Positions 5,351 to 52,587 of a DNA stretch of 64,000 nt are shown piece after piece (the first letter of the stretch is position 1; the number at the start of each line of letters is the position of its first letter). This stretch comes from Escherichia phage A4. Under the pieces are notes generated by a model. It saw nothing but the letters and a program-made list of their open reading frames with translations. It ran no database searches and was not told the origin of the DNA. A program made the position numbers and the translations under genes. The stretch is from sequence record ON286972; one strand, given 5' to 3'.

Positions 5351-5534
5351 AATCAAAATTTTATACTGTTTTTTTCCATTAGTTCCCCTACCGCGTGGGG
5401 ATGGTTTCCCCGCAGTATCTGGAGTTAGATTTTTCTGAATCTGGAATCATTATCTAATAAACTGGGGGCAATGTCAACCGCCTGGATGAATATTTTTAAA
5501 AAATAATCTAGTACTGAATTTTGGGCGTAACTAT

Positions 5535-5590
5535 GCACCCGGTGGGCTAGAGTCTTTCTCGACTTGATGAAATAATTATAGCAGTACTGG
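5535..5590. repeat. 56-bp dispersed repeat, copy 1
   Basis: gcacccggtgggctag...cttgatgaaataattatagcagtactgg; about 80 percent identical to copy at 9830-9885. Confidence 0.55.
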
Positions 5591-6053
5591 AAAAATAAAG
5601 CAATACCCTGGATGCAAAAAGTTTTAATTAATTTGCTTGCCATCCTGGGGCGTACTATGGTACTATGATTCAGTACTGAGAAAGTGCTTTGACCTGCTAG
5701 GGTGCGGGAGTGTATCCTTTTTAAATTTTATGAATTTTGGACGGATCTTCCCACCCCCTGGGGTATCCGCTTTCTCGCGTCTATGTAGTAATTATACGCT
5801 TTTTTAGTACTGAGTCAATAGCTAAAAACAAAATAATTGAAAATAATTTAACGCGTTTAAACGGCCCGTAAAGCCCTGGATTGGTGGGAGTGGTGCAAAT
5901 GTATAGCTTAGGTGTATTAATGCGTTAGAACGCGATTGAGGCCGTTTTAATGGTATAGTACTGAATAATTGTACTCACTGGATTGATTCAGTACTGAATG
6001 ATAGTACTCCTATATAGAAAGAAAACTATTTTAAAAGTATTTGTAGAAAGTAC

Positions 6054-7820: not shown

Positions 7821-8070
7821 GCAGTTTACAAATCTTTACAATTGCCAGTATTGACTTATTTTGTCAGTACTGGCATAATGTATCTATTGAAACGAACAAT
7901 TTGGCCCACGGGGTGCGGGAGTGTATCTATAGAAAAAGTAGTTTAGTACAGTTACAATTGTGCACCCTATGGGTTAGCTGTTGTCATGGGGTATATTATA
8001 CCAGTACTGGATAGTGCTGTCAATACCTTTTTTTTACTATTCAGTACTGAAAACTATTTTTAAAAAGTAC

Positions 8071-9541: not shown

Positions 9542-9763
9542 ATGGCTAATATCACTACTCTTTCCCAACTGGAAGCACTGGTTAAATCTATGCGGGAACA
9601 TGCCGACAATATCGGCGTAAAAGATCCAGCCGTTTGCTTCTGCGACGAATTGAATGATGATACCCTGGTAATAGCAGAAGTCCAGGACGTTTCTAACTAT
9701 TCCTCGCGTTACACTGGCGGTGTAGCAAATAAAGGTGACTTCTGTTTATACCTTACAAAATAA
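9542..9763 (+). CDS. hypothetical protein
   Basis: ATG 9542 after GAGGAAAA SD. Confidence 0.65.
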   Translation: MANITTLSQLEALVKSMREHADNIGVKDPAVCFCDELNDDTLVIAEVQDVSNYSSRYTGGVANKGDFCLYLTK

Positions 9764-9766
9764 CAA

Positions 9767-9798
9767 CGCGGGGAGATAATAACTCCCCGTTACTTTTT
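9767..9798 (+). terminator. rho-independent terminator
   Basis: Stem CGGGGAG/CTCCCCG with 7-nt loop, then TTTTT. Confidence 0.6.
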
Positions 9799-9829
9799 CA
9801 GTACTGAATCATTTAATAGACGGATCTCG

Positions 9830-9885
9830 GCACCCGGTGGGTTAGTGACTGTTTCGTCTTGATGTAGTAATTATGCCAGTACTGG
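9830..9885. repeat. 56-bp dispersed repeat, copy 2
   Basis: gcacccggtgggttag...cttgatgtagtaattatgccagtactgg; weaker relatives near 5745 and 7963. Confidence 0.55.
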
Positions 9886-12322: not shown

Positions 12323-12330
12323 AAAAGTAC

Positions 12331-13854: not shown

Positions 13855-13897
13855 TATTCTTACTGTACAGGATAAGATCGACATCTTAAAGGTTAAT

Positions 13898-14065: not shown

Positions 14066-14083
14066 TTTTTAGTACTGTATAAT
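14056..14083 (+). promoter_or_regulatory. class A promoter
   Basis: TTGCAA 14056-14061, TATAAT 14078-14083. Confidence 0.55.
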
Positions 14084-14137
14084 GTTTTACATCGAGGGGG
14101 GGGGAAATGGTTCTCCCCACTAATTAAGGAATATGAA

Positions 14138-14284
14138 ATGAAAGCATCAAAAAAGAGTAATACTAAGAAAGCATGTTCACCTTTCGCTGGGGTATTCCCT
14201 TTACGTTTCGTTGATGAAGTGGTTTCCTACCCGCCGGGCCTTACTCCTGAGATGGTAGAAAGTTTGCGTAAATCTAAAAAATAG
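14138..14284 (+). CDS. hypothetical small basic protein (48 aa)
   Basis: Hand-translated MKASKKSNTKKACSPFAG...; SD TAAGGAA. Confidence 0.5.
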   Translation: MKASKKSNTKKACSPFAGVFPLRFVDEVVSYPPGLTPEMVESLRKSKK

Positions 14285-14287
14285 TAC

Positions 14288-14315
14288 TTGCAATTAGTTT
14301 TTAGTACTGTATAAT
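14288..14315 (+). promoter_or_regulatory. class A promoter
   Basis: TTGCAA 14288-14293, TATAAT 14310-14315; GCGGGAACTATTCCCGC hairpin follows. Confidence 0.55.
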
Positions 14316-14369
14316 GTTTTACATCGAGTGCGGGAACTATTCCCGCCTAACTCAAAGAGAGAAAATATA

Positions 14370-14612
14370 ATGGAAACCATTTTAATCAAAGACACTGCTA
14401 CTACTGTAACTTATGATAATGATTGTATTATCCCTGGCACTGATTACGGCGAACGTGTACCCGTTCAAGTCGAGATTGATACTACATACATTGACCAGGC
14501 TGAAAAGTGTATCACTATTGTTATTGGTGAATATCGTTTTCTACCAGAAGAGATCCAAAAATGGCAGTATATGATTGACCGTGCGAAATTAGTCGCACAA
14601 AGTTTAAAATAA
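14370..14612 (+). CDS. hypothetical protein
   Basis: ATG 14370 after AAAGAGAGA SD. Confidence 0.65.
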   Translation: METILIKDTATTVTYDNDCIIPGTDYGERVPVQVEIDTTYIDQAEKCITIVIGEYRFLPEEIQKWQYMIDRAKLVAQSLK

Positions 14613-14693
14613 TACTTGCAATTAGTTTTCAGTACTGTATAATGTTTTACATAGAGGGGGGAAATGGTTCTCCCCGATACTAGGAGAATCAAA

Positions 14694-14846
14694 ATGAAAC
14701 AATATAATGCTCGGTTTGATGTTACTATCGGCAACGGCAAAGGTCAATTTTCTTTCAGTACTCGCCGCAGTTATACAGAAAACTTCCTGCGTAATTGTGC
14801 ATTGACCGCCGCACAAATTAAACATTACTTCCAGGCTAAAAAATGA
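14694..14846 (+). CDS. hypothetical small protein
   Basis: ATG 14694 after TAGGAGA SD. Confidence 0.6.
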   Translation: MKQYNARFDVTIGNGKGQFSFSTRRSYTENFLRNCALTAAQIKHYFQAKK

Positions 14847-14932
14847 AATCATTGGCTTATTACAGTTCGGCGGTGATCGGTGCATTGATCGCGGCATTGT
14901 TAGTAACCTATCTATTCTTTATGGTGATTTAA
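14843..14932 (+). CDS. 29-aa hydrophobic peptide (single predicted TM helix)
   Basis: ATGA overlap with upstream stop; MKSLAYYSSAVIGALIAALLVTYLFFMVI. Confidence 0.45.
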   Translation: MKSLAYYSSAVIGALIAALLVTYLFFMVI

Positions 14933-15070
14933 ATGAATCCTAACGGTTTAATTTACAGTACTCCTAAAACGAAAGCAGATAAAGCGAAAGCACGTAAAGC
15001 GAAAGTAAAGGAGTACATCAAGCAAGGCATGACGCGAAAAGCAGCAGTACTAAAAGCTAAAAATAAATGA
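14933..15070 (+). CDS. hypothetical small Lys-rich protein (45 aa)
   Basis: ATG immediately after TAA of the upstream peptide; MNPNGLIYSTPKTKADKAKARKAK... Confidence 0.45.
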   Translation: MNPNGLIYSTPKTKADKAKARKAKVKEYIKQGMTRKAAVLKAKNK

Positions 15071-15155
15071 AAAAAGTGGTTGACTTCGGTCAGCCATTTT
15101 GCTATTATATATTCATTGAGAGATAGCTCACTAGCCCACAGGGTGCGGAAGTGTA
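15071..15155 (+). repeat. composite hairpin/promoter/conserved-box module, copy 1
   Basis: A-run, hairpin with TTGACT -35 in its arm, 17 bp, TATTAT; then box AGCCCACAGGGTGCGGAAGTGTA. Confidence 0.55.
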
Positions 15156-15189
15156 AATAAAATATATCAATCTAATAAGGAGTACTACA

Positions 15190-15372
15190 ATGTTTAAACC
15201 AATCGAACTAGCGGCATCACATATCATCGGTAAACCTGCCGTTATCATACGCCAGGAAGACGTAAACCTATGGATCATCTATCTAGACATGAAAGAGATT
15301 GAGCGTCACGATGATTTCAAATCAGCGTCAATTGCGTATGATATGGCGTTATGTGAGTATCAAAGAGATTAA
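15190..15372 (+). CDS. hypothetical protein
   Basis: 60-aa ORF; SD TAAGGAG. Confidence 0.65.
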   Translation: MFKPIELAASHIIGKPAVIIRQEDVNLWIIYLDMKEIERHDDFKSASIAYDMALCEYQRD

Positions 15373-15392
15373 AAGTATTTTGCAAAAAGTAC

Positions 15393-15420
15393 TTGCATTG
15401 TACTTAGAATCAAGTATAAT
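15393..15420 (+). promoter_or_regulatory. class A promoter
   Basis: TTGCAT 15393-15398, TATAAT 15415-15420; GGGGAAACGGTTTCCCC hairpin follows. Confidence 0.55.
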
Positions 15421-15472
15421 GTTTTACATAGCAAGGGGAAACGGTTTCCCCTGGTAACTAAGGAAACATATC

Positions 15473-15814
15473 ATGACTATTGCAATTGCTCAATCTAACT
15501 TTGAAAACGAATTCATCGCTCAGGCACTGCGTTTAAATGATGGTCGGGCCGAAATCAATTACGGTTTCAATTCAGGCGGTTGTGAAAACTATCAGTACTT
15601 TATAACTGCTGATGGCGGTGTCCTGGGTATCAATACAGTTATTGTAAACATTCAGAAAATTAATTTCAATGATCCAGACGATAGCCAGTTTTACATTGTA
15701 GGCGTTGACGTGAACTATGAGGATGACTCACTAACTGATGATTGCACTGGAGAGAAGTTAGAAAGTGCATACGGTGAAGATGATTATCAGTCCGGTCCAG
15801 AAGATTTCGAATAA
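15473..15814 (+). CDS. hypothetical acidic protein
   Basis: 113-aa ORF; SD TAAGGAAA. Confidence 0.7.
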   Translation: MTIAIAQSNFENEFIAQALRLNDGRAEINYGFNSGGCENYQYFITADGGVLGINTVIVNIQKINFNDPDDSQFYIVGVDVNYEDDSLTDDCTGEKLESAYGEDDYQSGPEDFE

Positions 15815-15827
15815 TATTAAAAAATAG

Positions 15828-15855
15828 TTTGACAATAGATTATAGTACTGTATAA
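15828..15855 (+). promoter_or_regulatory. sigma70-like promoter
   Basis: TTGACA 15828-15833, TATAAT 15850-15855; hairpin GGGAAGTACCAGTACTTCCC follows. Confidence 0.55.
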
Positions 15856-15916
15856 TAGTTTACATCAAGGCACGGGAAGTACCAGTACTTCCCTACTAAC
15901 AAAGAGAGAAAACAAA

Positions 15917-16129
15917 ATGGCTAATATCCGCACTGTACTGAAAAATGCAAAACAAGTTTTATTTTCTGATCATGAAAATTTCAACAAGGATATCACAGGC
16001 GTTCGGAATATCAAAGATGTAAAAAATGTTATGGGTATCTATTGCAATATGAAACGTGTTGGTACTTTCGGCGACAAGGTACTATACCAGGCAGGGGATT
16101 ACAATTTTACACTGACTATCATTAACTAA
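15917..16129 (+). CDS. hypothetical protein
   Basis: 70-aa ORF; SD AAGAGAGA. Confidence 0.7.
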   Translation: MANIRTVLKNAKQVLFSDHENFNKDITGVRNIKDVKNVMGIYCNMKRVGTFGDKVLYQAGDYNFTLTIIN

Positions 16130-16148
16130 AAATATTATCACAGTACTA

Positions 16149-16177
16149 TTGACAAAGATTGATAGTACTGACATAAT
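16149..16177 (+). promoter_or_regulatory. class B promoter
   Basis: CAGTACTAT-TTGACA 16149-16154, CATAAT 16172-16177. Confidence 0.6.
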
Positions 16178-16220
16178 AACTTTTATCAAGACAACGCATA
16201 TTAACTTAAGGAATACTAAA

Positions 16221-16400
16221 ATGGCTATTATCGCAAAAACTGAAATCATCGGTCTGGATTCTATCATCATGACGTTTGAAGAACAAAAAGGTATGTATGT
16301 AGTTTCCTATGGTGATTATGTTCGGGAGTATGAAACGGTAGACGAAGCCTTTGAAAGTTACATTCGCCAGGTGAATAAAGCATACGACGACTACCGCTAA
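16221..16400 (+). CDS. hypothetical small protein
   Basis: ATG 16221 after TAAGGAA SD; weak resemblance to 12634 gene (MAII...). Confidence 0.6.
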   Translation: MAIIAKTEIIGLDSIIMTFEEQKGMYVVSYGDYVREYETVDEAFESYIRQVNKAYDDYR

Positions 16401-16427
16401 AATATATTACCAGTACTATTAAAGATA

Positions 16428-16455
16428 TTGACAACGTTTGATAGTACTGTATAAT
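16428..16455 (+). promoter_or_regulatory. class B-like promoter
   Basis: TTGACA 16428-16433, 16-bp spacer, TATAAT 16450-16455. Confidence 0.5.
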
Positions 16456-16499
16456 AAGTTTTATAAACAGTAGTTAACTTAACCTAAGAGAGAAACAAA

Positions 16500-16643
16500 A
16501 TGATCGCACTGGATTCATTCATCGACGCAGTACTGGCAAAAACTGGCGAAGATCTGACCGCAGAACAATACGCAATGATCGAACAATGCCAGCAAGACGG
16601 TAAATCGGTGAAAGATACTGTTAAGATTATCCGCAAGATGTAA
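16500..16643 (+). CDS. hypothetical small protein (47 aa)
   Basis: Hand-translated MIALDSFIDAVLAKTGEDL...; SD AAGAGAGA. Confidence 0.5.
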   Translation: MIALDSFIDAVLAKTGEDLTAEQYAMIEQCQQDGKSVKDTVKIIRKM

Positions 16644-16649
16644 GATTAT

Positions 16650-16680
16650 AGCCCACTGGTTAACGCTGGTGGGCTTTTTA
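16650..16680 (+). terminator. rho-independent terminator
   Basis: Stem AGCCCAC/GTGGGCT then TTTTT. Confidence 0.65.
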
Positions 16681-16763
16681 GTATATACCTATCCGATAGT
16701 ACTACAAAATAGATTAGCTCGTTAGAATGCGATTGAGAGCGTTTAAATAAGTACTAAAAAGTA

Positions 16764-16791
16764 TTGACAGTACTGAAAGATAGTGTATAAT
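16764..16791 (+). promoter_or_regulatory. sigma70-like promoter
   Basis: TTGACA 16764-16769, TATAAT 16786-16791. Confidence 0.55.
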
Positions 16792-16840
16792 GTTTTATAT
16801 CAAGGGGAGGATAACCCTTCCCAGTACTGAGGAAAACAAA

Positions 16841-17029
16841 ATGGAACAATTATCAAGTATTTTAGTACAAGATGAATACGGCAATCCAGGAAGTGCTATC
16901 ATTGTTCGGGGTAATAAGGCAACATTTGTTATTGCTGGTGGACCTGTACAGCGTAGCATTAAAAACAATGCCGTTACTATTAATAATGTACGCTATCGTT
17001 TAGATAAAGAATTAATTCATAAACTTTAA
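16841..17029 (+). CDS. hypothetical protein
   Basis: ATG 16841 after TGAGGAAAA SD. Confidence 0.65.
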   Translation: MEQLSSILVQDEYGNPGSAIIVRGNKATFVIAGGPVQRSIKNNAVTINNVRYRLDKELIHKL

Positions 17030-17115
17030 AAAAGTACTGGACAATAGATTATAGTACTGTATAATAGTTTACATGAAGGGGAGAAATGATTCTCCCCAGT
17101 ACTGAGGAAAGAAAA

Positions 17116-17328
17116 ATGCAAGGTCAACTAATCGTTCGTAAATGGTCTGATACTAACGAAAAACCGTGGGATGTACAATACATCGCCCCCAATGGTGAAT
17201 CCAGATATCAACCTGGCGTAACGCATAGTACTGAGCAATTCGCCGCTGCTCACCGTGAACGCCTGTTACAATCCATGCAGCAAGGCTTCGGTGAAAAATT
17301 CATCCAAGATCATTGGCTGAAAGATTAA
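17116..17328 (+). CDS. hypothetical protein
   Basis: ATG 17116 after TGAGGAAAGAAAA. Confidence 0.65.
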   Translation: MQGQLIVRKWSDTNEKPWDVQYIAPNGESRYQPGVTHSTEQFAAAHRERLLQSMQQGFGEKFIQDHWLKD

Positions 17329-17336
17329 AAAAGTAT

Positions 17337-17364
17337 TTGACAAAGTATCACAGTACTGTATAAT
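17337..17364 (+). promoter_or_regulatory. sigma70-like promoter
   Basis: TTGACA 17337-17342, TATAAT 17359-17364; hairpin GGGGAGAAGTTTTCTCCCC follows. Confidence 0.55.
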
Positions 17365-17415
17365 TAATTACATCAAGGGGAGAAGTTTTCTCCCCACCAT
17401 ATAAGGGTAACAGTT

Positions 17416-17505
17416 ATGCACATGAATCCGTTCATAGTAGTAATTGCAATCATTATGGCAGTACAGGCCGTATTAGTTTACTTAAGCAAAGCAGGAGTTA
17501 TCTAA
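17416..17505 (+). CDS. 29-aa hydrophobic peptide (single predicted TM helix)
   Basis: MHMNPFIVVIAIIMAVQAVLVYLSKAGVI; SD TAAGGG upstream. Confidence 0.45.
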   Translation: MHMNPFIVVIAIIMAVQAVLVYLSKAGVI

Positions 17506-17506
17506 A

Positions 17507-17680
17507 ATGATCCATGTAGAATTGTCAGTACTGAAAGATCTGTTTTATCGGATGGGTACTACTGGCGAATATCCGAAGGGTGATACCGCAAAACTTTTTG
17601 TATCACTCGACTTATGGCAACGCGAACAATTAGTAACGTCCTGGCGTAAAGGTAAAGCCGACAAGGGGGTCGTAGCATGA
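17507..17680 (+). CDS. hypothetical small protein (57 aa)
   Basis: ATG 1 nt after upstream stop; MIHVELSVLKDLFYRMG... Confidence 0.45.
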   Translation: MIHVELSVLKDLFYRMGTTGEYPKGDTAKLFVSLDLWQREQLVTSWRKGKADKGVVA

Positions 17681-17826
17681 AAGAATACATTTTCGAAGTT
17701 ACGTTTTTGGGTAAAGGTATGCATCAACTGATACGGTCCAGCGGATACAGTGTTAACCAGGCGTGGAATAACTTAAAACAAATGTACCCGAACGCTATCA
17801 CATATCGCAACCCTCGCGAGGCATAA
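17677..17826 (+). CDS. hypothetical small protein (49 aa)
   Basis: ATGA overlap; MKEYIFEVTFLGKGMHQL... Confidence 0.45.
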   Translation: MKEYIFEVTFLGKGMHQLIRSSGYSVNQAWNNLKQMYPNAITYRNPREA

Positions 17827-17835
17827 AATAAATTG

Positions 17836-17918
17836 AAAAAAGGGATTGACTCCGGTCAGTCCCTTTGCTATTATATACGCATAGACAAAAACTAGCCCAC
17901 CGGGTGCATAAATGTATC
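17836..17918 (+). repeat. composite hairpin/promoter/conserved-box module, copy 2
   Basis: Hairpin GGGATTGACTCCGGTCAGTCCC 17842-17863 (TTGACT 17846-17851), TATTAT 17869-17874, box AGCCCACCGGGTGC. Confidence 0.55.
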
Positions 17919-17974
17919 TATTGTTTGCTGGTGGCCTGTATTGTCTAGTACTGAAAACTATTTTAAAAAAGTAC

Positions 17975-18002
17975 TTGCATTGTACTTAGAATCAAGTATA
18001 AT
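17975..18002 (+). promoter_or_regulatory. class A promoter (first of tandem pair)
   Basis: TTGCAT 17975-17980, TATAAT 17997-18002. Confidence 0.55.
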
Positions 18003-18007
18003 GTTTT

Positions 18008-18085
18008 ACATCAGGACGGGGAATGAAACAAGTAACCCCGTTAAGTAGTCCAGGAGTAAGACATACGAAAACCTCCCCTGATAAA
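18008..18085 (+). other. conserved ~80-nt structured leader / candidate small RNA (copy 2)
   Basis: Near-identical to 8107-8185, with compensatory-looking changes. Confidence 0.4.
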
Positions 18086-18090
18086 ATAGT

Positions 18091-18118
18091 TTGACAATAG
18101 AAAGTAAACGAGTATAAT
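18091..18118 (+). promoter_or_regulatory. second promoter of tandem pair
   Basis: TTGACA 18091-18096, TATAAT 18113-18118. Confidence 0.55.
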
Positions 18119-18150
18119 ACTTACATCAACCACTGATAAGGAAACATAAA

Positions 18151-18426
18151 ATGCGGATTCTACTGACAGCTAACGAAATCGAACAAGTACTGACTACTAA
18201 CCTGCAAGACTGGAAACGTGAAGCAGATATCCAGGCGGTTCAATGGCTTAACGATAAGTTAACGCCGGATGACTTAAGCAAGATTGTAGATCCTCAATTC
18301 TACGAAGATATTCACGACACCGCGTTAAGCGTCGAGGATGTACTTGATAAGCACTACATTGATACTGATTTACAGGTTTACGGTCGTAAAAACTTTATCA
18401 CTATTCACGACATTTACAATACTTAA
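18151..18426 (+). CDS. hypothetical acidic protein
   Basis: 91-aa ORF; SD TAAGGAAA. Confidence 0.7.
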   Translation: MRILLTANEIEQVLTTNLQDWKREADIQAVQWLNDKLTPDDLSKIVDPQFYEDIHDTALSVEDVLDKHYIDTDLQVYGRKNFITIHDIYNT

Positions 18427-18513
18427 GTATTGACAAAGTATCTTAGTACTGTATAATAGTTTACATCAAGGCGGGGAAATGGTTCCCCTCCTAACTAAAA
18501 GAGAGAAATTAAA

Positions 18514-18696
18514 ATGGCTAAGTGCACTATCTGTAAGAAAGAAATCGTATTAGTTCCAAGTGCCCGTGAACGTGCCGCTCGGTTCGGTGGCAAAGCGTCA
18601 GACTATACAAAAATGTTTACTGCCCATGCAGATTGCCAGGTAGCAAAACGTTCACAAGAAAGCGTAGAATTAATGCGTAAACTTTCCAAAAAATAA
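18514..18696 (+). CDS. small Cys-containing protein, possible zinc ribbon
   Basis: MAKCTICKK...HADCQ; own promoter and GGCGGGGAAATGGTTCCCC hairpin upstream. Confidence 0.65.
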   Translation: MAKCTICKKEIVLVPSARERAARFGGKASDYTKMFTAHADCQVAKRSQESVELMRKLSKK

Positions 18697-18784
18697 GTAT
18701 TGACAAAGTATCTTAGTACTGTATAATAGTTTACATCGAGTGAGGGGAAACGGTTCCCCTCCTAACAAAGAGAGAGAAATAAAA

Positions 18785-19108
18785 ATGGCTATGATCCTTA
18801 CCCAGAAAGTAGAACTGAAAATTGTAACCTCCTTTGACATTAAAGTTAATCGGTGGACTGATTCACACGGCAATACTTACCACTCTTGCTACGTGTCTGC
18901 TTTGATTGGTGATCGCTGGGAGGATTTAGGACATGAAACCTTTACTTACGGTTACGGCACACAAGGCGAATACACGGGCTTGGAGATCATTAAAGAAACG
19001 GTTATAGGTTTCAACCCGAAAGAAAAAGTTATTCATCAAATAGAAAAAGAGATCAACAAAGAAATAACAGTTCGCTACAACGATGTAAAACGTAAGAAAG
19101 ATATGTAA
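18785..19108 (+). CDS. hypothetical protein, paralog of gene at 12938
   Basis: ATG 18785; shares GNTY, YGYG and terminal DVKRKKD with 12938..13282. Confidence 0.65.
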   Translation: MAMILTQKVELKIVTSFDIKVNRWTDSHGNTYHSCYVSALIGDRWEDLGHETFTYGYGTQGEYTGLEIIKETVIGFNPKEKVIHQIEKEINKEITVRYNDVKRKKDM

Positions 19109-19130
19109 TAGAATCCATTTAAAGTACTAT

Positions 19131-19159
19131 TTGACATTGCCCAGATAGTACTTTATAAT
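19131..19159 (+). promoter_or_regulatory. class B promoter
   Basis: AGTACTAT-TTGACA 19131-19136, 17 bp, TATAAT 19154-19159; the paralogous site near 7176 has a 13-bp spacer. Confidence 0.5.
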
Positions 19160-19203
19160 AGACTCTCGCTTGTAGTACTAACTTAACTAATAGGATGTAT
19201 ACC

Positions 19204-19599
19204 ATGATTACTAAATTCTACGCTACCCGTGAAGCTGCCCGTATTGTTGCACGCGAGGAAGGAGCAGCATTTAAAGACATGGGCACGACCGCACCGAAAG
19301 GTCAACGCTGGGCCGTACAGTTCAAAGAAATCTCTGATATTGTGAATTCACCTGAGCCAGTACTGACAGCAGCAGAACAGAAGAAAGCTGATGAACTGTC
19401 AGCAGTACTTAACGCTCAAGATGAATTTATCGCTGGTTCTGATATTAAAGTACAGGTAAATTCGAATGCATGGACTCACGCGGATCACCTGGCTAACCTG
19501 AAGCGTCCAAGTGAACTGATTCGCAACAAACGAGAGATCCGTCATGACCGCAAGGGAAACCGTGTTACCGTATACAGTAAACGCCGCCAGGTTATCTAA
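19204..19599 (+). CDS. hypothetical protein, paralog of gene at 7237
   Basis: MITKFYATREAARIVAREEGAAFKDMG...HDRKGNRVTVYS. Confidence 0.65.
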   Translation: MITKFYATREAARIVAREEGAAFKDMGTTAPKGQRWAVQFKEISDIVNSPEPVLTAAEQKKADELSAVLNAQDEFIAGSDIKVQVNSNAWTHADHLANLKRPSELIRNKREIRHDRKGNRVTVYSKRRQVI

Positions 19600-19621
19600 T
19601 AACTTGCAGTACTAACAACAC

Positions 19622-19646
19622 GGCGGGATCAGTTCCCGCCTTTTTT
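19622..19646 (+). terminator. rho-independent terminator
   Basis: Stem GGCGGGA/TCCCGCC, loop TCAGT, then TTTTTT. Confidence 0.7.
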
Positions 19647-19661
19647 ATAGGATAAACTAAA

Positions 19662-19916
19662 ATGATTAAGGTACAACTATCTAAAGATAATATCTTGCGG
19701 GTACACTATAAAGCCCCACAGAGAATCATCACAAAGGCCGTACAGCTTGCTAATGAGTTTATTAATGGTAATCTATTACCGAGGAAGTTAAGCAACGGAA
19801 AACTGCGTGTAATCGACGTGGACACCAACAACAGAATAGTAATCGAGAATACCGGAAAGATAAACCTATATGAACACCAACAATATAATAAGAAAATAAA
19901 ACTAATATCACGTTGA
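19662..19916 (+). CDS. hypothetical protein
   Basis: 84-aa ORF; SD TAGGA. Confidence 0.65.
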   Translation: MIKVQLSKDNILRVHYKAPQRIITKAVQLANEFINGNLLPRKLSNGKLRVIDVDTNNRIVIENTGKINLYEHQQYNKKIKLISR

Positions 19917-19970
19917 CAGTACTCAAATGTTTTAGTACTATGTATCTATACCAACACGGGGAGTAACAAA

Positions 19971-20189
19971 ATGAATTTATCTAAAGTCGAAAAGAAAACT
20001 ATTGATGTAGCTATCCAACATGGTTACACCTTTCGTAATGATTCACATTTTACCAATTTTCAACAAGGCCAACGAACTATTAAAAAACTAATTGACAAAG
20101 GTTTATTAGTTAAAGTAGATAACGGTAACGGCGTGGAGTATCAGCCAACACAAGACGCATTATCTTTAAAGAAATATGCAATTATCTAA
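19971..20189 (+). CDS. hypothetical protein
   Basis: 72-aa ORF; TTGACAGTACT promoter element and SD GGGGAG upstream. Confidence 0.65.
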   Translation: MNLSKVEKKTIDVAIQHGYTFRNDSHFTNFQQGQRTIKKLIDKGLLVKVDNGNGVEYQPTQDALSLKKYAII

Positions 20190-20254
20190 TTGACAGTACT
20201 CAAATGTTTTAGTACTATATGTACATACCAACACGGAATAACTGGAGAAACAAA

Positions 20255-20482
20255 ATGATTAATATCTTAGAACGCATCAAAGAAACTACTACGCTGGTGG
20301 ATCTACTCAATGTACTGACTTTTAAAGTAACTCGGTTTAGTACTCCTGAATTTATCAACCTCATTGATAGTAAAGGTGAATACCGCATCACTATTGAAAA
20401 TGGTCGTGCTAATGTATTCAGTACTAAATCAGGTAAAACCGCAATTCATTCAGTAATTGCAAATAAAACTGTTGCAATCTAA
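20255..20482 (+). CDS. hypothetical protein
   Basis: ATG 20255 after TGGAGAAA SD; upstream region duplicates that of 19971. Confidence 0.6.
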   Translation: MINILERIKETTTLVDLLNVLTFKVTRFSTPEFINLIDSKGEYRITIENGRANVFSTKSGKTAIHSVIANKTVAI

Positions 20483-20551
20483 TTAGTACTAACATATAAT
20501 AGTCACATCAAGGCAGGGAATACCTCCCTGCTATCTTAAAGAGTAAATGCA

Positions 20552-21136
20552 ATGCGTAATTATACTAAATTCATCCGTACACTGGGAGAAATGGAAACTA
20601 ACAAAGAGATCCTTACAGCTTGTCGGTTGGCTGGTCTGGAGATCATCGGGGCCGGATCATCCCGTATCGTATTCGCTTTAAATGATCGGTTAGTGATTAA
20701 GGTCGCTAATTGTGACGCTGGCGTAGAACAAAATGAAACAGAATGTAAGGTATGGAATTTTTTAGATTATGACCGCCCTCACCTTAAACAGTACTTTGCA
20801 AAGGTGCATATGCATTTATGCGATCCTGATAATATGTTTATCGTTATGGATCGGTTGAGTACTGCAAGTAAAGGCAGTGTAAAGCACGTAAACGCGTGCA
20901 ATGAATTAAAGTACAATATTAAACGTAATGCCATTGAACGCCAGCACCGCTTTGCTGATGCACTACAACACGTTGATGATACATTATCAACACTAACGAT
21001 AAGAGATATCAGAAAACAGAATATCGGCCAGGATCGTAATGGCCTTATTAAAGTACTTGATTACGGTTTAACCCGCAATATCTGGAATCAGTACTATAAA
21101 AAGCGTGATGTAGAAGCAAGTAAGGTAACACGATAA
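20552..21136 (+). CDS. putative protein kinase-like protein (minimal kinase fold)
   Basis: IGAGSSRIVF (Gly loop), VIKV (Lys), DIRKQN (catalytic-loop-like), DYG (DFG-like) in kinase order. Confidence 0.45.
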   Translation: MRNYTKFIRTLGEMETNKEILTACRLAGLEIIGAGSSRIVFALNDRLVIKVANCDAGVEQNETECKVWNFLDYDRPHLKQYFAKVHMHLCDPDNMFIVMDRLSTASKGSVKHVNACNELKYNIKRNAIERQHRFADALQHVDDTLSTLTIRDIRKQNIGQDRNGLIKVLDYGLTRNIWNQYYKKRDVEASKVTR

Positions 21137-21145
21137 AAAAGATTA

Positions 21146-21231
21146 AAAAAGGGATTGACTCCGGTCAGTCCCTTTGCTATTATATATTCATTGAGAGATA
21201 ACTCACTGACCCATAGGGTGCGGAAGTGTAT
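21146..21231 (+). repeat. composite hairpin/promoter/conserved-box module, copy 3
   Basis: Hairpin GGGATTGACTCCGGTCAGTCCC 21151-21172, TATTAT, box CCCATAGGGTGCGGAAGTGTATC. Confidence 0.55.
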
Positions 21232-21359
21232 CTATTATATAAGTATTCAGTACTGAAAACTATTTGATAAAAAGTACTTGCATTGTACTTAGAATCAAGT
21301 ATAATGTTTTATATCGAGAGGGGGAAATGGTTCTCCCTGGTACATTAAGGAATAAAATC

Positions 21360-21581
21360 ATGACTACAATGACTTGCATTCACGCTTCAAACCTGCTTAA
21401 TGATGCGGCCTTTAATGTTGATTCAGAATATCAATGTTATCGGGATGAAAATAAAAAAGTTTTTGTAGTTGATAATAATGGTTTCCATATTGAATTACAA
21501 TCCGGTTTCACTGGTGTTGATGGTAAATCAGTGTGGGGCGTACAGGATGATAAAGGCACATATCATTTTAAACGTAATTAA
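21360..21581 (+). CDS. hypothetical protein
   Basis: ATG 21360 after TAAGGAATAAA; class A promoter and hairpin upstream. Confidence 0.65.
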   Translation: MTTMTCIHASNLLNDAAFNVDSEYQCYRDENKKVFVVDNNGFHIELQSGFTGVDGKSVWGVQDDKGTYHFKRN

Positions 21582-21667
21582 GTATTGACAAAGTATATCA
21601 TCAGTACTGTATAATAGTTTACATCAAGGGGAGAATAGTTCTCCCCAATACAATAAGGAATAAAATC

Positions 21668-22075
21668 ATGTCTACTACTACTAATCTCGCTCGGAACATC
21701 ACTAACGATAAAAATCATGCTGCAATGGTTGTAGCTTACATTGAAGCTATGCAATTCAGTACTGTACATAATGATAACGGCGATTACCTGGAAGATTATG
21801 AGTTATCTGATGAAGCACGTCAAGCGGCGGTGATTGCATGTTCTCGCTTCATTGAGAAACACGGTAATGATCTGGAAGTAGTTCGCGGTATGTTTATTGA
21901 TTACGGTTATGAGCAAGCTGGTCATGATCTGTTCCTTACCCGCGAAGGTCACGGAACTGGTTTTTGGGATCGTGGTTTAGGTCACTATGGCGATGTATTC
22001 ACGAAGTACTGCGAAGAAATCAACGTTTGCGATCCCTATGTAGGCGATGATAACTTAATCTATATGGGCGAATAA
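21668..22075 (+). CDS. hypothetical protein
   Basis: 135-aa ORF; promoter and GGGGAGAATAGTTCTCCCC hairpin upstream. Confidence 0.7.
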   Translation: MSTTTNLARNITNDKNHAAMVVAYIEAMQFSTVHNDNGDYLEDYELSDEARQAAVIACSRFIEKHGNDLEVVRGMFIDYGYEQAGHDLFLTREGHGTGFWDRGLGHYGDVFTKYCEEINVCDPYVGDDNLIYMGE

Positions 22076-22164
22076 AAGTATTTGACAAAGTATATCAGTA
22101 CTGTATAATAGTTTACATCAAGGGGAGAATAGTTCTCCCCACACCAATAAAAGGAAACAAAATT

Positions 22165-22437
22165 ATGTCCAGCTACTCCGCTACTATGATCATTAAAGAT
22201 ATGAACGGTAATCCTACTTCTGCTGGTGGATCATTTGGAAACATTAATTTAGATGGTCGGTTATCCATGCAATCAGCCATCGATGCAGCGAAAGAAGTTT
22301 TTAAGAATGAATGTACTGTTAGTAAGCTGGATTATATGGGATTCGCTATCGAGAAAACTAATCGTTTTGTGAACTACAAAAATCCACTGATGATTGATAC
22401 TAACCTGAAAGCTAACGAAGTGGGGTACTTATTATGA
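22165..22437 (+). CDS. hypothetical protein
   Basis: 90-aa ORF; SD AAAGGAAA. Confidence 0.7.
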   Translation: MSSYSATMIIKDMNGNPTSAGGSFGNINLDGRLSMQSAIDAAKEVFKNECTVSKLDYMGFAIEKTNRFVNYKNPLMIDTNLKANEVGYLL

Positions 22438-22625
22438 CAGTAGAAGAAGTTAAAAAAGTACTGGCAGTACTACGCTATCATAATCATTGCAAGGTGAAGA
22501 ATGATCCTGATTATGTTGATTCATCCCTGGAGGAAGACACATTAAACGCAATAAGCCATATGCAAACATTAGCAAAGCGTATGACCGAAAAGAATAGACC
22601 GGACTATATCGGAAATAAAATTTAA
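22434..22625 (+). CDS. hypothetical protein
   Basis: ATGA overlap with upstream gene; 63 aa. Confidence 0.6.
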   Translation: MTVEEVKKVLAVLRYHNHCKVKNDPDYVDSSLEEDTLNAISHMQTLAKRMTEKNRPDYIGNKI

Positions 22626-22711
22626 AAAGTACTTGCATTGTAGTTAGATTAACGTATAATGTTTTACATAGAGCGGGGGAATAGTTCTCCCGCCAGTCCA
22701 GGAGATACACC

Positions 22712-22975
22712 ATGAACACTATCGAAATCACTATCAATGCACACGTATACGACAACGTAGCACTGCAAACTACTATGACCGCTAATGATACCAGTACTTT
22801 GCGGAATACTGTTATTAGTGCCGTATGTGCTGCAATCGGTGATGTCGCCCTGGAAAATGCAAAACACGTAAACGATGGTTTCACTATGTGCAAACGTGAT
22901 AACGCAAAACATATCATCGTGGAAGGTTACGGCGGTGTAGAATTTAATGTTTATATGAAAAAAGTACTTGCATAA
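22712..22975 (+). CDS. hypothetical protein
   Basis: 87-aa ORF; promoter and GCGGGGGAATAGTTCTCCCGC hairpin upstream. Confidence 0.7.
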   Translation: MNTIEITINAHVYDNVALQTTMTANDTSTLRNTVISAVCAAIGDVALENAKHVNDGFTMCKRDNAKHIIVEGYGGVEFNVYMKKVLA

Positions 22976-23042
22976 TAACTAAAACAAAGTATAATGTTTT
23001 GCATAGGGGGAGATATCCTCCCCCACTAAAAGGAGTAATAAA

Positions 23043-23267
23043 ATGGCTAACTTTGATGAACTGATGCGGGAAGTAGCTAACCTGGCAGAAGAGAAGAAAT
23101 CATTCGATTCTATCTATAACACCGCTCACCGTGATTCAGTACTGGCATGTAACCAGGATCAAAAAGATGAACTAATCGCCACCTATCATGAAGCATGGAA
23201 GTACTACCGACAATGGGAGAAAGAAGAAAGAGAGTCTACCATTGACGGCCTCAATAATCTAATCTAA
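23043..23267 (+). CDS. hypothetical protein
   Basis: 74-aa ORF; hairpin GGGGGAGATATCCTCCCCC upstream. Confidence 0.7.
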   Translation: MANFDELMREVANLAEEKKSFDSIYNTAHRDSVLACNQDQKDELIATYHEAWKYYRQWEKEERESTIDGLNNLI

Positions 23268-23343
23268 AAGTTTTATTTCAGTACTATTGACATAGCTTGA
23301 TAGTACTGATGTAATAACTTTACTAACTACAAGGGGAAACATA

Positions 23344-23601
23344 ATGGATCAATTCACACAATATCGGGTAAATCCTCAAGCTATGGCCTACGTAGAAGAC
23401 CATAAAACGTTACCAGTACTGCAACCAGTTAAAGGCCATATCTATCGTGCAATGTCGTGGAGTGCGGCCCAGGATGGCTATAAAACCGTAGCCGTGGGTA
23501 TGTATTGCGGTAATGGTGAATGGTTTGATCCAAATAATCCGGTAGCCATTGACAGTACTGAAAAAATGAAATGGGCCGACTACATCGAAGATATTTCATA
23601 A
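23344..23601 (+). CDS. hypothetical protein
   Basis: 85-aa ORF; class B-type promoter at 23287-23315. Confidence 0.65.
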   Translation: MDQFTQYRVNPQAMAYVEDHKTLPVLQPVKGHIYRAMSWSAAQDGYKTVAVGMYCGNGEWFDPNNPVAIDSTEKMKWADYIEDIS

Positions 23602-23691
23602 AAACTATTTGACAGTACTACAAGATAATGTATAATGTTTTACATAGAGCGGGGGAATAGTTCTCCCGCCAATAGTTTGGAGTTAAACATT

Positions 23692-23892
23692 ATGTCTATC
23701 GCTATCGCCCTGGTTGAAGTACTGAAAGAAGCTAAAGCCAACCTTATCGATGTACAGATTAAGGAATTGCAAAACGGCTTAATCGGCTGTACTTGTACCG
23801 CTGGTGGAGCGGCAGACTATCGAGAACACGAATCACTCGAATCACTGGTTCGGTATCTTACCATGATCGTTGATGATTGGAGAATCATCTAA
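23692..23892 (+). CDS. hypothetical protein
   Basis: ATG 23692 after TGGAG SD. Confidence 0.6.
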   Translation: MSIAIALVEVLKEAKANLIDVQIKELQNGLIGCTCTAGGAADYREHESLESLVRYLTMIVDDWRII

Positions 23893-23904
23893 CAAAAAAG
23901 AATA

Positions 23905-23986
23905 AAAAAGGGATTGACTCCGGTCAGTCCCTTTGCTATTATATACGCATAGACAAAAACTAGCCCACAGGGTGCATAGGTGTATC
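23905..23986 (+). repeat. composite hairpin/promoter/conserved-box module, copy 4
   Basis: Hairpin GGGATTGACTCCGGTCAGTCCC 23910-23931, TATTAT, box AGCCCACAGGGTGCATAGGTGTATC. Confidence 0.55.
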
Positions 23987-24137
23987 CAAAATATATAGTT
24001 AATAACGGTGAGTAACTATCTGCTGGTGGGGTGAAAACTATTAATAAAAAAAGTATTGACAAAGTATATCAGTACTGCAATAATGTATCTCGTAGGGCGG
24101 CAATGGTGCGACGGCCCACAAAGTTAGGAGATTCAAA

Positions 24138-24470
24138 ATGACTACTTCAATCGCTATCGTTAAAGCTTTCATCCGTACTAATGTTTCCTCTGTATTCATC
24201 GACGGCCTCGACCGTAACGTAGAATACTCAATCATTATCGCACAAACGGCAAACGGTTCTCGGTACATCCTGAATGATAGTGAAGCAAATCACTACTACT
24301 TCACTAAAGCCACTGGCTTTAAACGCATCGATGCTGATGTAGTATACGCTAAGATGAATAAGCTGGTAGATAAGATTAACGCTAAAGGTACTATAGATTT
24401 ACAGTACTGGACCGAAACCGATCCAGAATATGGATCTCACCGCTACCTGAATCCAGGTGTTAAAATGTAA
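24138..24470 (+). CDS. hypothetical protein
   Basis: 110-aa ORF; SD TAGGAGA. Confidence 0.7.
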   Translation: MTTSIAIVKAFIRTNVSSVFIDGLDRNVEYSIIIAQTANGSRYILNDSEANHYYFTKATGFKRIDADVVYAKMNKLVDKINAKGTIDLQYWTETDPEYGSHRYLNPGVKM

Positions 24471-24559
24471 AAAGTACTTGCATAGTACTTAGATTCAAGT
24501 ATAATGTTTTTCATAGAGAGGGGGAAATGGTTCTCCCTCCTAAATTAAGGAGTTTTATC

Positions 24560-52542: not shown

Positions 52543-52549
52543 TTTTAAA

Positions 52550-52576
52550 GCCAGGGTATTGACTCTGGCTTTTTTC
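52550..52576 (+). terminator. terminator hairpin overlapping next promoter
   Basis: Stem GCCAGGG/CTCTGGC then TTTTTT; TTGACT 52559-52564 lies in the hairpin. Confidence 0.55.
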
Positions 52577-52587
52577 TTTGCTATTAT
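52559..52587 (+). promoter_or_regulatory. sigma70-like promoter embedded in terminator hairpin
   Basis: TTGACT 52559-52564, 17 bp, TATTAT 52582-52587; same architecture as the four composite modules. Confidence 0.5.

Follow-up and report, generated by a model that had tools for sequence, protein, structure and literature searches.

Predicted terminator-promoter modules of phage A4

The DNA analysed here, a stretch of 64,000 nucleotides (the window), belongs to an Asteriusvirus-like jumbo coliphage, Escherichia phage A4 (ON286972). Four modules are present in it at intervals of 2.7-3.3 kb among ORFs of 45-194 aa (Table 1). Each is composed of a hairpin located 2-20 nt 3' of a plus-strand stop codon, an extended -10 sigma70 promoter whose -35 (TTGACT) sits in the 5' arm of that hairpin, and further downstream a box, GCCCACNGGGTGC. 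All transcription starts and transcript ends referred to below were predicted from the sequence.

Table 1. Predicted features of the modules and RNA units in the window
Feature	Position	Strand	Remarks
Copy 1 terminator hairpin, AAAGTGGTTGAC-TTCG-GTCAGCCATTTT	15073..15100	+	3 nt after stop of ORF 14933-15070; -15.9 kcal/mol, z -4.4
Copy 1 promoter	15080..15108	+	-35 TTGACT in 5' arm, 17-bp spacer, TGC-TATTAT extended -10
Copy 1 RNA unit	15115..15162	+	P1 15117-15120/15127-15130; P2+GC 15134-15146; 54.2 bits, E 1.4e-12
Copy 2 terminator hairpin	17839..17866	+	13 nt after stop of ORF 17677-17826; -19.5 kcal/mol, z -5.9
Copy 2 promoter	17846..17874	+	-35 TTGACT, 17-bp spacer, TGC-TATTAT
Copy 2 RNA unit, short form without stable P1	17881..17923	+	P2+GC 17895-17907; runs into early promoter ~17966; 51.3 bits
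Copy 3 terminator hairpin	21148..21175	+	12 nt after stop of ORF 20552-21136; terminator in G17 annotation
Copy 3 promoter	21155..21183	+	
Copy 3 RNA unit	21190..21237	+	P1 TGAG/CTCA; P2+GC 21209-21221; runs into early promoter ~21269; 66.9 bits
Copy 4 terminator hairpin	23907..23934	+	15 nt after stop of ORF 23635-23892; terminator in G17 annotation
Copy 4 promoter	23914..23942	+	
Copy 4 RNA unit, short form	23949..23991	+	P2+GC 23963-23975; runs into promoter at 24056; 49.9 bits
RNA unit	5519..5566	-	TATAAT promoter without hairpin; 36.2 bits
Degenerate RNA unit, P2 loop enlarged	5675..5721	+	convergent with 5735-5782; 20.7 bits, E 0.004
Divergent RNA unit (CCCCAGGGGGTGG)	5735..5782	-	107 nt start-to-start from 5675 unit; 26.3 bits
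RNA unit	7886..7932	+	TTGACT-N17-CATAAT promoter (7852-7880); convergent with 7946-7987
RNA unit	7946..7987	-	TTGACA-N17-TATAAT promoter; 101 nt start-to-start from 7886 unit
Free-standing unit, ~100 nt	9762..9861	-	RNA element 9814-9861, then terminator hairpin 9769-9789; converges on ORF 9512-9763
Box-less terminator/promoter composite	52547..52587	+	hairpin AAGCCAG..CTGGCTT, -35 TTGACT in loop, then TTTGCTATTAT; -15.5 kcal/mol

The hairpin GGGATTGACTCCGGTCAGTCCC was found in exactly three exact occurrences (0 expected), and copy 1 has the variant TGGTTGAC-TTCG-GTCAGCCA, in which the pairing is preserved. The A-run adds three A-U pairs to the stem. On the plus strand the hairpin is followed by UUUGCUAUUAU in copies 2-4 and by UUUUGCUAUUAU in copy 1, a short U-tract of 3-4 U that is then interrupted. 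The terminator scan accepted the hairpin only with T's counted as stem; ARNold accepted it in G17, and the related records of G17 and GAP32 label such hairpins as ARNold terminators or stem-loops. Between genera the stems covary, TTGAC being constant. The emphasis that the preliminary description laid on a minus-strand terminator is not borne out. For 32 hairpin-type promoters the mean stability was -11.6 kcal/mol in the sense RNA versus -6.3 kcal/mol in the antisense RNA, the sense fold being the stronger in 31, and for copy 2 the plus-strand hairpin was calculated at -19.5 versus -13.2 kcal/mol for the minus strand. The plus-strand RNA hairpin is the more stable because of G-U pairs.

The sequence TTGAC-N17-TATTAT occurs six times in the window versus 0.49 expected; five of these belong to the four modules and to a composite at 52559-52587. 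These five promoters carry TG ahead of the -10, at -15/-14, and are thus of the extended -10 type. All four module copies, whose promoter scores 10/12, read TTGACT-N17-TGCTATTAT with A6 upstream, an A-run which we take to match the proximal UP-element consensus AAAAAARNR. The sequence at 52550-52587 had been regarded as a relative of the modules. It is a related composite; its hairpin is a different one, with the -35 in the loop, and no box lies downstream. The terminator-plus-promoter reading itself is supported by the position of the hairpins directly 3' of stop codons, their strong folds and the G17 and GAP32 annotations. Hairpin and promoter very probably constitute a composite cassette in which early transcription from upstream is ended and then restarted by a strong host sigma70 promoter.

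A probable structured RNA element at the predicted transcript start

The box is not confined to the four modules, which are present where they had been reported and at counts far above chance. With up to two mismatches it was found 10 times in the window versus 0.57 expected, and a covariance model retrieved 10 units at E <= 0.004 (next match E 1.6), on both strands and all within 5.5-24 kb. Most of them have other promoters, without the hairpin. The count of four therefore stands for the modules and is too low for the box family. Four further copies, at 5535, 5751, 7962 and 9830 on the minus strand, had been missed, and the claim that this strand encodes nothing is therefore wrong for this region. 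As to the two boxes described as partial, the one at ~7900 is a full box (7904-7916) and the one at ~5693 is degenerate (CC-TGCTA-GGGTGC). The consensus was not exact either, since copy 3 reads ACCCATAGGGTGC, two mismatches away from it, and copy 1 has GTGTAAA instead of the GTGTATC ascribed to all four.

The box is no separate site: the RNA that the module promoter is predicted to yield contains it within its initial ~48 nt. When the covariance model was applied to the window and 21 loci (RaK2, GAP32, CBB, 121Q and fHe-Yen9-04 included), 87 matches were obtained, 71 of them distinct. The comparison with related genomes that had been suggested thus yielded the element family in RaK2, GAP32, CBB, fHe-Yen9-04 and 121Q-like genomes. 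In 70 of the 73 distinct units a sigma70-like -10 ends 4-9 nt (mode 6) upstream of unit nucleotide 1, a spacing found at 1.7% of random positions. In essentially every copy the box begins 17-27 nt downstream of a predicted start, which agrees with the earlier proposal that a small RNA or a short conserved leader is made. The other suggestion, that a phage regulator has its site here, may also hold.

The element starts with an optional 5'-terminal hairpin, P1, which is variable in sequence and has a purine-rich loop. It is followed by the invariant P2 (RCCC-AYN-GGGU), GC, five variable bases that are likewise purine-rich, and a U-N-Y-R-UCU tail. CCC and GGGTGC are constant in the 71 distinct copies without compensatory change, and RNAalifold independently predicts P2. 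As the P2 stem (CCC/GGG) never varies, no covariation can be obtained from it; an invariant stem is also expected from protein recognition of DNA. P2 is closed by G-U in 38 sequences and by A-U in 30, and in P1 both sides change in 4 of 4 pairs, these counts being made on an alignment fitted to the covariance model, which favours the structure. The P1 covariation score was 0.327 versus 0.131 after shuffling (reached in 0 of 500) and at most 0.052 with the partners slid. P1 contains too few G-U pairs to tell which strand folds, and about 21 of the 71 units, copies 2 and 4 among them, have no stable P1 hairpin. The 5' segment and the tail were no more complementary to each other than permuted pairs were. 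To judge from its sequence and position, the box is probably part of an RNA with which the new transcript begins.

Genomic contexts and comparison with known systems

The element, which is early, multi-copy and near the terminal repeat, would start at least 10 transcription units in the window and dozens in RaK2-like jumbo phages. It is found in three contexts: as a leader that continues to a further early promoter with its gene, as a free-standing gene of ~100 nt with its own terminator, and in convergent pairs. The leader context is that of the four module copies. Like most hairpin-type units they have no terminator downstream, and the transcript enters the next promoter and gene. Free-standing units of 95-100 nt consist of promoter, element and terminator (e.g. 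window 9762-9861, minus strand, and loci L003, L005, L024 and L029) and oppose the 3' ends of other-strand genes, often converging; a long single-stranded A/U-rich stretch extends from P2 to the terminator. The box is present in both orientations in the genome, with inverted pairs 45-60 bp apart. The tail of copy 1 is interrupted at 15155 by an insertion with ORF 15190-15372, and synteny with a 121Q-like locus is lost at this point in the box tail and regained at the next early promoter (15369). BLAST coverage between relatives is patchy; flanking genes vary and cassettes persist.

No Rfam 15 family reached its gathering threshold anywhere in the window, and in 14900-24300 none of the units was matched at E <= 10. 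The strict motif was not found in 185,579 bacterial and archaeal genomes, nor was a description of the element found in Rfam, record annotations or the literature. ARAGORN detected no tRNA or tmRNA gene in the whole window. The RNA element is apparently new.

In T4-like phages, promoter-early stem-loops (PeSLs) with the stem-loop overlapping the -35 were shown experimentally to terminate as well as promote transcription (PMC2839356; PMC4122927), the criteria being mini-circle excision and promoter and terminator activity in reporters (PMC2839356). The stems of nt-1 and KVP40 PeSLs, A3-4G3-loop-C3T3-4 (PMC4122927), are resembled by the module stem AAAGGGA...TCCCTTT. PeSLs are also repeated intergenic cassettes of ~100 bp with a strong sigma70-like early promoter together with a stem-loop terminator, which may overlap the -35. 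They have an A/T-rich tract upstream, like the A6 of the modules, lie between small ORFs where the early region is plastic and are linked to indel breakpoints (here 15155 and 15369). They differ in their hosts, which are Tevenvirinae and not RaK2-like jumbo phages, and in ending with a Shine-Dalgarno sequence and start codon, whereas the modules continue with a conserved structured RNA element that is also found without any hairpin. This 48-nt element, plus a second promoter in copies 2-4, precedes any ribosome-binding site; only copy 1 leads directly into one, via the insertion. On these sequence features the four modules match composite promoter/terminator cassettes (PeSLs) to which a conserved RNA element is added.

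At lambda PR'-qut-tR' (6S RNA) and other antitermination signals near promoters (nut, HK022 put), as in the modules, a conserved element lies within the first tens of nucleotides behind a strong constitutive promoter. By description, PR'-qut-tR' is also resembled by those units in which a terminator ~100 nt downstream would give a short RNA. The module element differs in having no boxA, ops or evident -10-like pause inducer. BoxA (GCUCUUWA) has one match in the window versus 3.96 expected by chance, at 35769 and distant from all units; ops (GGCGGTAGNNTG) matched none of the units at up to two mismatches, and its total count equalled chance. HK022 put, unlike the module element, consists of two larger stem-loops. 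Because the free-standing units oppose other-strand genes, read-through would be antisense, unlike lambda-type antitermination.

The consensus pause has G-10 Y-1 G+1, and his-type pauses are stabilised by a hairpin, for which an invariant stem sequence is unnecessary. In the alignment the element resembles the his type in that a small hairpin ends ~11 nt before a conserved step from pyrimidine to purine, position -10 being G. It differs from the consensus in that its commonest tail has A at +1, and about 1/5 of the tails have no pyrimidine-G or pyrimidine-A step where expected.

Possible role of the 5' element

The account that combines the cassette, the RNA element and its recognition at the 5' end is given a probability of about 0.6. 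A G+C-rich hairpin after the stop codon would end early transcription arriving from upstream. As an arm of this hairpin doubles as the -35 of a strong sigma70 promoter, transcription would restart ~30 nt downstream, and the new transcript would open with the ~48-nt P1-P2-tail element. We favour the element being a 5' RNA that would be recognised by a protein or RNA polymerase, with P1 possibly shielding the transcript end. More specifically, it is conceivable, if rather doubtful, that P2 and the tail are recognised on the emerging RNA, either by RNA polymerase itself or by a protein of the phage or the host. Spacing and base pattern in the alignment (P2 stem end at -11, G at -10, U at -3, pyrimidine at -1, purine at +1), set against the consensus given above, are compatible with a hairpin-stabilised promoter-proximal pause. 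Such a pause might load a factor and so alter elongation, stability or translation of the 5'-tagged transcripts.

Alternatively, the RNAs could act in trans: at least 10 strong early promoters would yield abundant short RNAs with one invariant hairpin, which would titrate or decoy an RNA-binding protein of the host or the phage, or base-pair with a target. In that case the four leader copies would represent the same RNA in 5'-UTR form, from which processing might free it. The existence of several complete genes of ~95-100 nt, often converging on the 3' end of an opposite-strand gene, is in line with this, as are the restriction of the multi-copy element to the early terminal-repeat-proximal region and the A/U-rich stretch behind P2. 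In the related jumbo phage PA5oct, abundant ncRNAs of 236-619 nt arise from the terminal repeat (PMC7318152). They are comparable by description, as highly transcribed ncRNAs of a terminal-repeat or early region in the same wider clade, and according to the authors resemble no sequence from beyond the species itself (PMC7318152). However, the four copies and most hairpin-type units lack a terminator, no complementary target besides the units themselves was found in the window, a search of E. coli genomes, insensitive to short seeds, gave no match, and the conserved bases are mostly sequestered in P2. Action in trans is considered unlikely.

The invariance of CCC and GGGTGC, the dyad symmetry of the core, the two orientations with their inverted pairs and the paucity of G-U pairs in P1, which leaves no strand asymmetry to be seen, would also suit a partly palindromic DNA operator (ACCC-N3-GGGT plus flanks) at +17 to +45, where a phage or host protein could block or modulate the promoters, e.g. 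for post-early shut-off. This is improbable, as the box goes with a promoter that places the unit start at the predicted +1 (70 of 73 units), and its distance from the -10 changes with the length of P1 (box start at about +15 to +27), which is unexpected for a promoter-relative DNA site. In addition, the G at the P2 closing position in 38 of 71 copies breaks the DNA symmetry, and the conserved flank is one-sided. It is very improbable that the box has no function and that the cassettes are recombination substrates, repeatedly copied and homogenised by PeSL-style shuffling, even if the persistence of cassettes between varying genes, the two breakpoints, the patchy coverage and the proposal of PeSLs as recombination sites (PMC2839356) point in this direction. 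The 12-nt core and tail are constant over at least five genera despite divergence of the promoters, of P1 and of the sequence downstream, and compensatory changes maintain P1 pairing. As homogenisation acts within a genome, conservation between genera would be left unexplained.

With regard to the favoured 5' RNA, we tentatively suggest that P1-P2-tail may represent a new RNA family specific to RaK2-like jumbo phages, a 5' tag that each genome would produce from at least 10 strong early promoters. RNA polymerase or a dedicated protein would read it, so that early transcription would be reprogrammed, through pausing or antitermination, or a host factor sequestered, and the convergent pairs would serve as antisense or collision switches. 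The free-standing units that oppose the 3' ends of other-strand genes are a better fit to a trans-acting RNA than to a cis-acting pause or loading site.

Genome region and the hairpin/promoter half of the modules

A megablast search with 14500-24500 matched 109 phage records, nearly all of them Escherichia jumbo phages of ~350 kb (such as G17, which is classified as Asteriusvirus, JP4 and BF17), at 80-97% identity and with patchy coverage. The first 30 kb of the window is made up of small plus-strand ORFs. Dozens of sigma70 promoters close to consensus lie between these ORFs and sort into families D1-D8; downstream of every one come a short 5' leader hairpin and a ribosome-binding site. The window contained neither tRNA or tmRNA genes nor matches to Rfam families. 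There is essentially no work on early-gene control in the RaK2-like enterobacterial jumbo phages (Asteriusvirus, Alcyoneusvirus, Mimasvirus and relatives), and their published annotations label the sites described here as terminators only.

On rereading the sequence, the four modules of hairpin, promoter and conserved box were present as the preliminary description had them (see table). The 22-nt hairpin sequence occurs exactly three times in the window (0 expected), the hairpin of copy 1 being a variant with compensating changes. The promoter pattern TTGAC-N17-TATTAT was found six times (0.49 expected), five of which are the four modules and a site at 52559, and the box with up to two mismatches ten times (0.57 expected). 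The count of four copies was thus too narrow: ten units, the predicted box-bearing RNA elements, were found in the window, and box copies on the minus strand at 5535, 7962 and 9830 had escaped notice.

The hairpins begin 2-20 nt past plus-strand stop codons (ORF ends at 15070, 17826, 21136 and 23892). As RNA they fold with -15.9 kcal/mol (z -4.4) in copy 1 and -19.5 kcal/mol (z -5.9) in copies 2-4, whereas RNA read from the opposite strand attains -13.2 kcal/mol at best, because a U-G pair turns into a C-A mismatch. On this strand asymmetry the minus-strand terminator that had been proposed was rejected. The -35 lies within the hairpin in 32 of 74 distinct unit promoters from the window and related phages, and in 31 of these 32 the RNA folds more stably in the sense than in the antisense direction (means -11.6 vs -6.3 kcal/mol). 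Across relatives the outer stem shows compensated variants (GGGA/TCCC, TGG/CCA, GGGG/CCCC, AGGA/TCCT, GTAC/GTAC), with TTGAC constant. Sense-strand stability and compensated stem changes together show that selection acts on the hairpin as a structure of gene-strand RNA. ARNold terminators are annotated in G17 at the homologues of copies 3 and 4, and the equivalents in Cronobacter phage GAP32 are annotated as one stem-loop and one terminator. The promoter matches the consensus at 10 of 12 positions, with TG ahead of the -10, and its A6 run with GGG behind it would fit the proximal UP-element consensus, AAAAAARNR. By computation the hairpin is a plus-strand RNA structure in terminator position, overlapped by a strong promoter, and we consider the terminator/promoter layer of the cassette very probably real.

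A conserved element at the predicted transcription start

Scanning IMG/VR for the box pattern gave 28 loci. The genuine matches are in A+T-rich contigs of ~350 kb or pieces of such contigs; eight others, in G+C-rich contigs and without any of the surrounding context, look like chance. In every genuine match the box stands shortly downstream of a sigma70-type promoter, either hairpin-embedded (TTGACT with TATTAT or TATACT), TTGACA with TGGCATAAT, or with TATAAT. A short hairpin, P1, separates the box from the predicted start (the A of a conserved CAT); the P1 loop is purine-rich, and the P1 stem changes from copy to copy (for example TGAG/CTCA, AGCA/TGCT, GACA/TGTC, GACG/CGTC, ACCAC/GTGGT, GGC/GCC and GGAG/CTCC).

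Seven copies sharing one register were used to build a first covariance model, which recovered nine copies from the window alone and, with 21 loci added to the search, 87 in all, 71 of them distinct. A second, built from all matches and run without filters, gave ten window units at E <= 0.004, all within 5.5-24 kb, the next match having E = 1.6. The consensus begins with A-U-W-G, a P1 stem of 3-5 bp and a loop such as AGAUAA, GAGAAA, AGAACAA or GCGAAA; it continues with C-U-A-R, the second hairpin P2 (CCC-A-Y-N-GGG-U), G-C, five variable, mostly purine bases and a tail, U-N-Y-R-U-C-U-R-U. The R in the 'RTG' of the tail is an artefact of the search pattern, unbiased copies having U, C or A.

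In the alignment of the 71 distinct units both partners have changed in each of the four P1 pairs, and 86.9% of P1 cells are paired. The P1 covariation score is 0.327 against 0.131 ± 0.009 for shuffled alignments (0 of 500 reach 0.327) and at most 0.052 with the partners slid; this alignment had been fitted to the model, which favours the structure, and the compensatory stems are nonetheless plain in the raw sequences. About 21 of the 71 units have no stable P1 hairpin; copies 2 and 4 are among them, with UAG/CUA as their only possible pairing. P1 folding did not differ between sense and antisense (p = 0.41), so P1 alone cannot tell which strand folds. The CCC/GGG of P2 never varies (it is closed by a G-U pair in 38 sequences and by A-U in 30), and its covariation consequently says nothing either way; RNAalifold predicted P2 independently in the free-standing units.

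The conserved element begins at the predicted +1. A promoter (at least 8/12 consensus) ends 4-9 nt, most often 6 nt, before unit nucleotide 1 in 70 of 73 distinct units, compared with 1.7% of random positions passing the same test; the remaining three have truncated coordinates or a variant -35 hexamer, and a -10-like hexamer lies upstream of each. The earlier idea of a terminator-promoter insulator yielding a conserved leader or small RNA was right in outline.

Two further readings of the element were rejected. Pairing of the tail (UAUCU) with the 5' segment or with the P1 loop (AGAUA), as a closing helix or pseudoknot, is not supported: complementarity was above that of shuffled tails, but matched pairs were no better than permuted ones, 9% of permutations equalling them. 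Small ORFs across the module (a TTG ORF at 15080-15160 and a mini-ORF from the tail RUG) were rejected as coding, because P1 lengths differ between copies by non-multiples of three and because of the search-pattern origin of the R in 'RTG'.

Contexts, distribution and possible roles

Positions of modules, units and associated repeats (in the window unless one of the related-phage loci L002, L014, L022 or L029 is named)
Feature	Position	Strand	Arrangement
Copy 1	15071-15155	+	ribosome-binding site brought directly after box by insertion
Copy 2	17836-17918	+	leader: terminator/promoter hairpin, unit, 23-59 nt, ordinary early promoter with own leader and gene
Copy 3	21146-21231	+	leader, as copy 2
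Copy 4	23905-23986	+	leader, as copy 2
Free-standing small gene	9762-9861	-	promoter, unit, ~25-30 nt with AGUACUG, terminator; predicted RNA of ~95-100 nt
Convergent pair	5675/5782	+/-	starts 101-127 nt apart in such pairs
Convergent pair	7886/7987	+/-	as preceding pair
AATGATAATCATT palindromes	L002 about 8080-8105 and 2820-2843; L022 about 3110-3135; L029 about 6088-6110		
CAGTACTG octamer, examples	4367, 5582, 7865, 9799, 21248, 24070		
Second leader (D8)	8088-8170, 10980-11062, 17992-18072; L014 5790-5872		

Units occur in leaders, as free-standing small genes and in convergent pairs. Free-standing units usually converge on the 3' end of an opposite-strand gene, and others are present in RaK2 and several metagenomic relatives. 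Eight more convergent pairs were found in other loci. Each predicted transcript of such a pair would carry the complement of its partner's box, and for this reason the 7886 RNA forms a long hairpin (-45.6 kcal/mol, z -2.9). In several convergent pairs of relatives the centre between the boxes is a palindrome with AATGATAATCATT, which would correspond to the Fur-box core of enterobacteria; the window's own pairs lack this palindrome.

Unit loci were found in Klebsiella phage RaK2, GAP32, Pectobacterium phage CBB, Yersinia phage fHe-Yen9-04, a 121Q-like coliphage and uncultured relatives of Salmonella phage 7t3, with exact-pattern matches at no more than three short loci per ~350-kb genome. In CBB and some coliphages the box loci lie within or adjoin the terminal repeat; abundant non-coding RNAs from the terminal repeat have been described in the more distant relative PA5oct (PMC7318152). 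The strict motif was absent from 185,579 bacterial and archaeal genomes, and the 33-nt consensus had no match in E. coli genomes. The papers found on CBB, RaK2, PA5oct and Asteriusvirus phages report RpoD-like promoters and terminators and do not describe the box element. The element is well defined and is conserved across genera.

Composite cassettes of early promoter and stem-loop, in which the stem-loop can overlap the -35, are known from T4-like phages as PeSLs (promoter-early stem-loops); in reporter assays they terminate and promote, and they mark sites of modular gene shuffling (PMC2839356; PMC4122927). The hairpin/promoter half described here has the same architecture and belongs to this known kind as a new member; for the 5' RNA element attached to it we found no earlier description. 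BLAST endpoints at query 3337 and 559 were discarded as recombination breakpoints, being mostly cross-matches among cassette copies, and direct pairwise comparison was therefore used. Colinearity with the 121Q-like locus is lost at 15155, inside the box tail of copy 1, and regained at 15369, the next early promoter; the interval contains a 213-bp insertion overlapping nearly all of a 60-codon ORF (15190-15372). This break is consistent with a PeSL-like gene-shuffling role.

That the conserved element starts with the transcript, and that the distance of the box from the -10 shifts with P1 length, argues for a role in RNA and against a DNA site positioned relative to the promoter. An operator in DNA is in play, CCC/GGG being invariant. 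We infer that the element acts as RNA, and put the probability that it is a transcribed RNA element at about three in four. If it is a functional RNA, it would be a candidate for a new RNA family, clearly defined by its sequence, would widen the PeSL concept by adding an RNA tag to terminator and promoter, and would offer a conserved, multi-copy and easily mutated handle on the first minutes of transcription in a 350-kb phage. Should it prove a mere recombination scaffold or a DNA operator, the result would be an ordinary one.

As to how such an RNA might work, the geometry of P2 and the tail would suit a hairpin-stabilised pause. With the conserved pyrimidine of the tail taken as the RNA 3' end, the P2 stem would end at -11 and the G of GC would fall at -10, and in the same register the alignment would place an invariant U at -3 and a purine at +1; the pause consensus and the spacing of his-type hairpins served for comparison. 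A promoter-proximal pause at the element could load a factor. The likeness to lambda PR'-qut-tR' would lie in this pause and, here, in the free-standing units. Such a pause/loading mechanism is speculative, and we give it clearly less than even odds. No boxA fitting the units was found, nor was an ops element, and transcripts reading through beyond the free-standing units would run antisense to the genes next to them, so that a trans-acting decoy or small regulatory RNA is a serious rival. Target sites complementary to box or tail were found in the window only in the units themselves. CsrA-type GGA sites, CRISPR-repeat mimics and type III antitoxin repeats were dismissed on their known sequence features, which are absent or inconsistent here.

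Other repeats and leaders in the window

Families D1-D8 comprise at least 25 near-consensus early promoters within 6045-24524 (AAAAAGTACTTGCA/TTGACA-N16-17-GTATAAT), with ACAT, a leader hairpin (for instance GGGGAATGGTTCCCC) and a ribosome-binding site after each, and are a separate family of PeSL-like cassettes. The D8 leader is a second conserved non-coding leader (ACATCAGGACGGGGAAYGAAAYAAGTAAC..CCCC.TTAAGTAG.CCAGGAGTAAG..ACGAAAAAC). An early promoter stands on either side of it, and in two cases a box unit immediately precedes it; it is predicted to form a GGGG/CCCC hairpin, but its four sequences show no covariation. Downstream of copies 2 and 4, at 20-60 nt, GCTGGTGG(C/G) offers the box a pairing that would take the place of P2. 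AGCCCAC, the 5' half of the box, is common to two ordinary terminators, at 10887-10903 (AGCCCACC-T-GGTGGGCT+T6) and 16650-16675 (AGCCCACTGG..GCTGGTGGGCT+T4).

The palindromic octamer CAGTACTG occurs 72 times in 1-64000 (0.86 expected). Its sites include promoter spacers, where it directly precedes the -10, positions some 60 bp ahead of early promoters and 10-20 nt past RNA units, and ORFs throughout 30-64 kb; it is probably bound by a protein or related to modification. At 5244-5350 about 13 copies of the 8-mer CTAGACGG form a degenerate tandem array, which was also scored with a 24-nt period. The surrounding 2 kb (about 4140-6130) lack a convincing ORF and are promoter-dense on both strands; this region could be iteron-like or related to packaging or injection. 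Paralogous small-ORF families lie at 2577-3795, 26482-29411 and 31785-57245, with repeated MYKEYY-type N-terminal starts (D16/D20), a repeated LLGTNYQ..YV segment (D15) and an EE.FQYS-type motif common to ten ORFs (D11), which indicates extensive gene duplication in the region.
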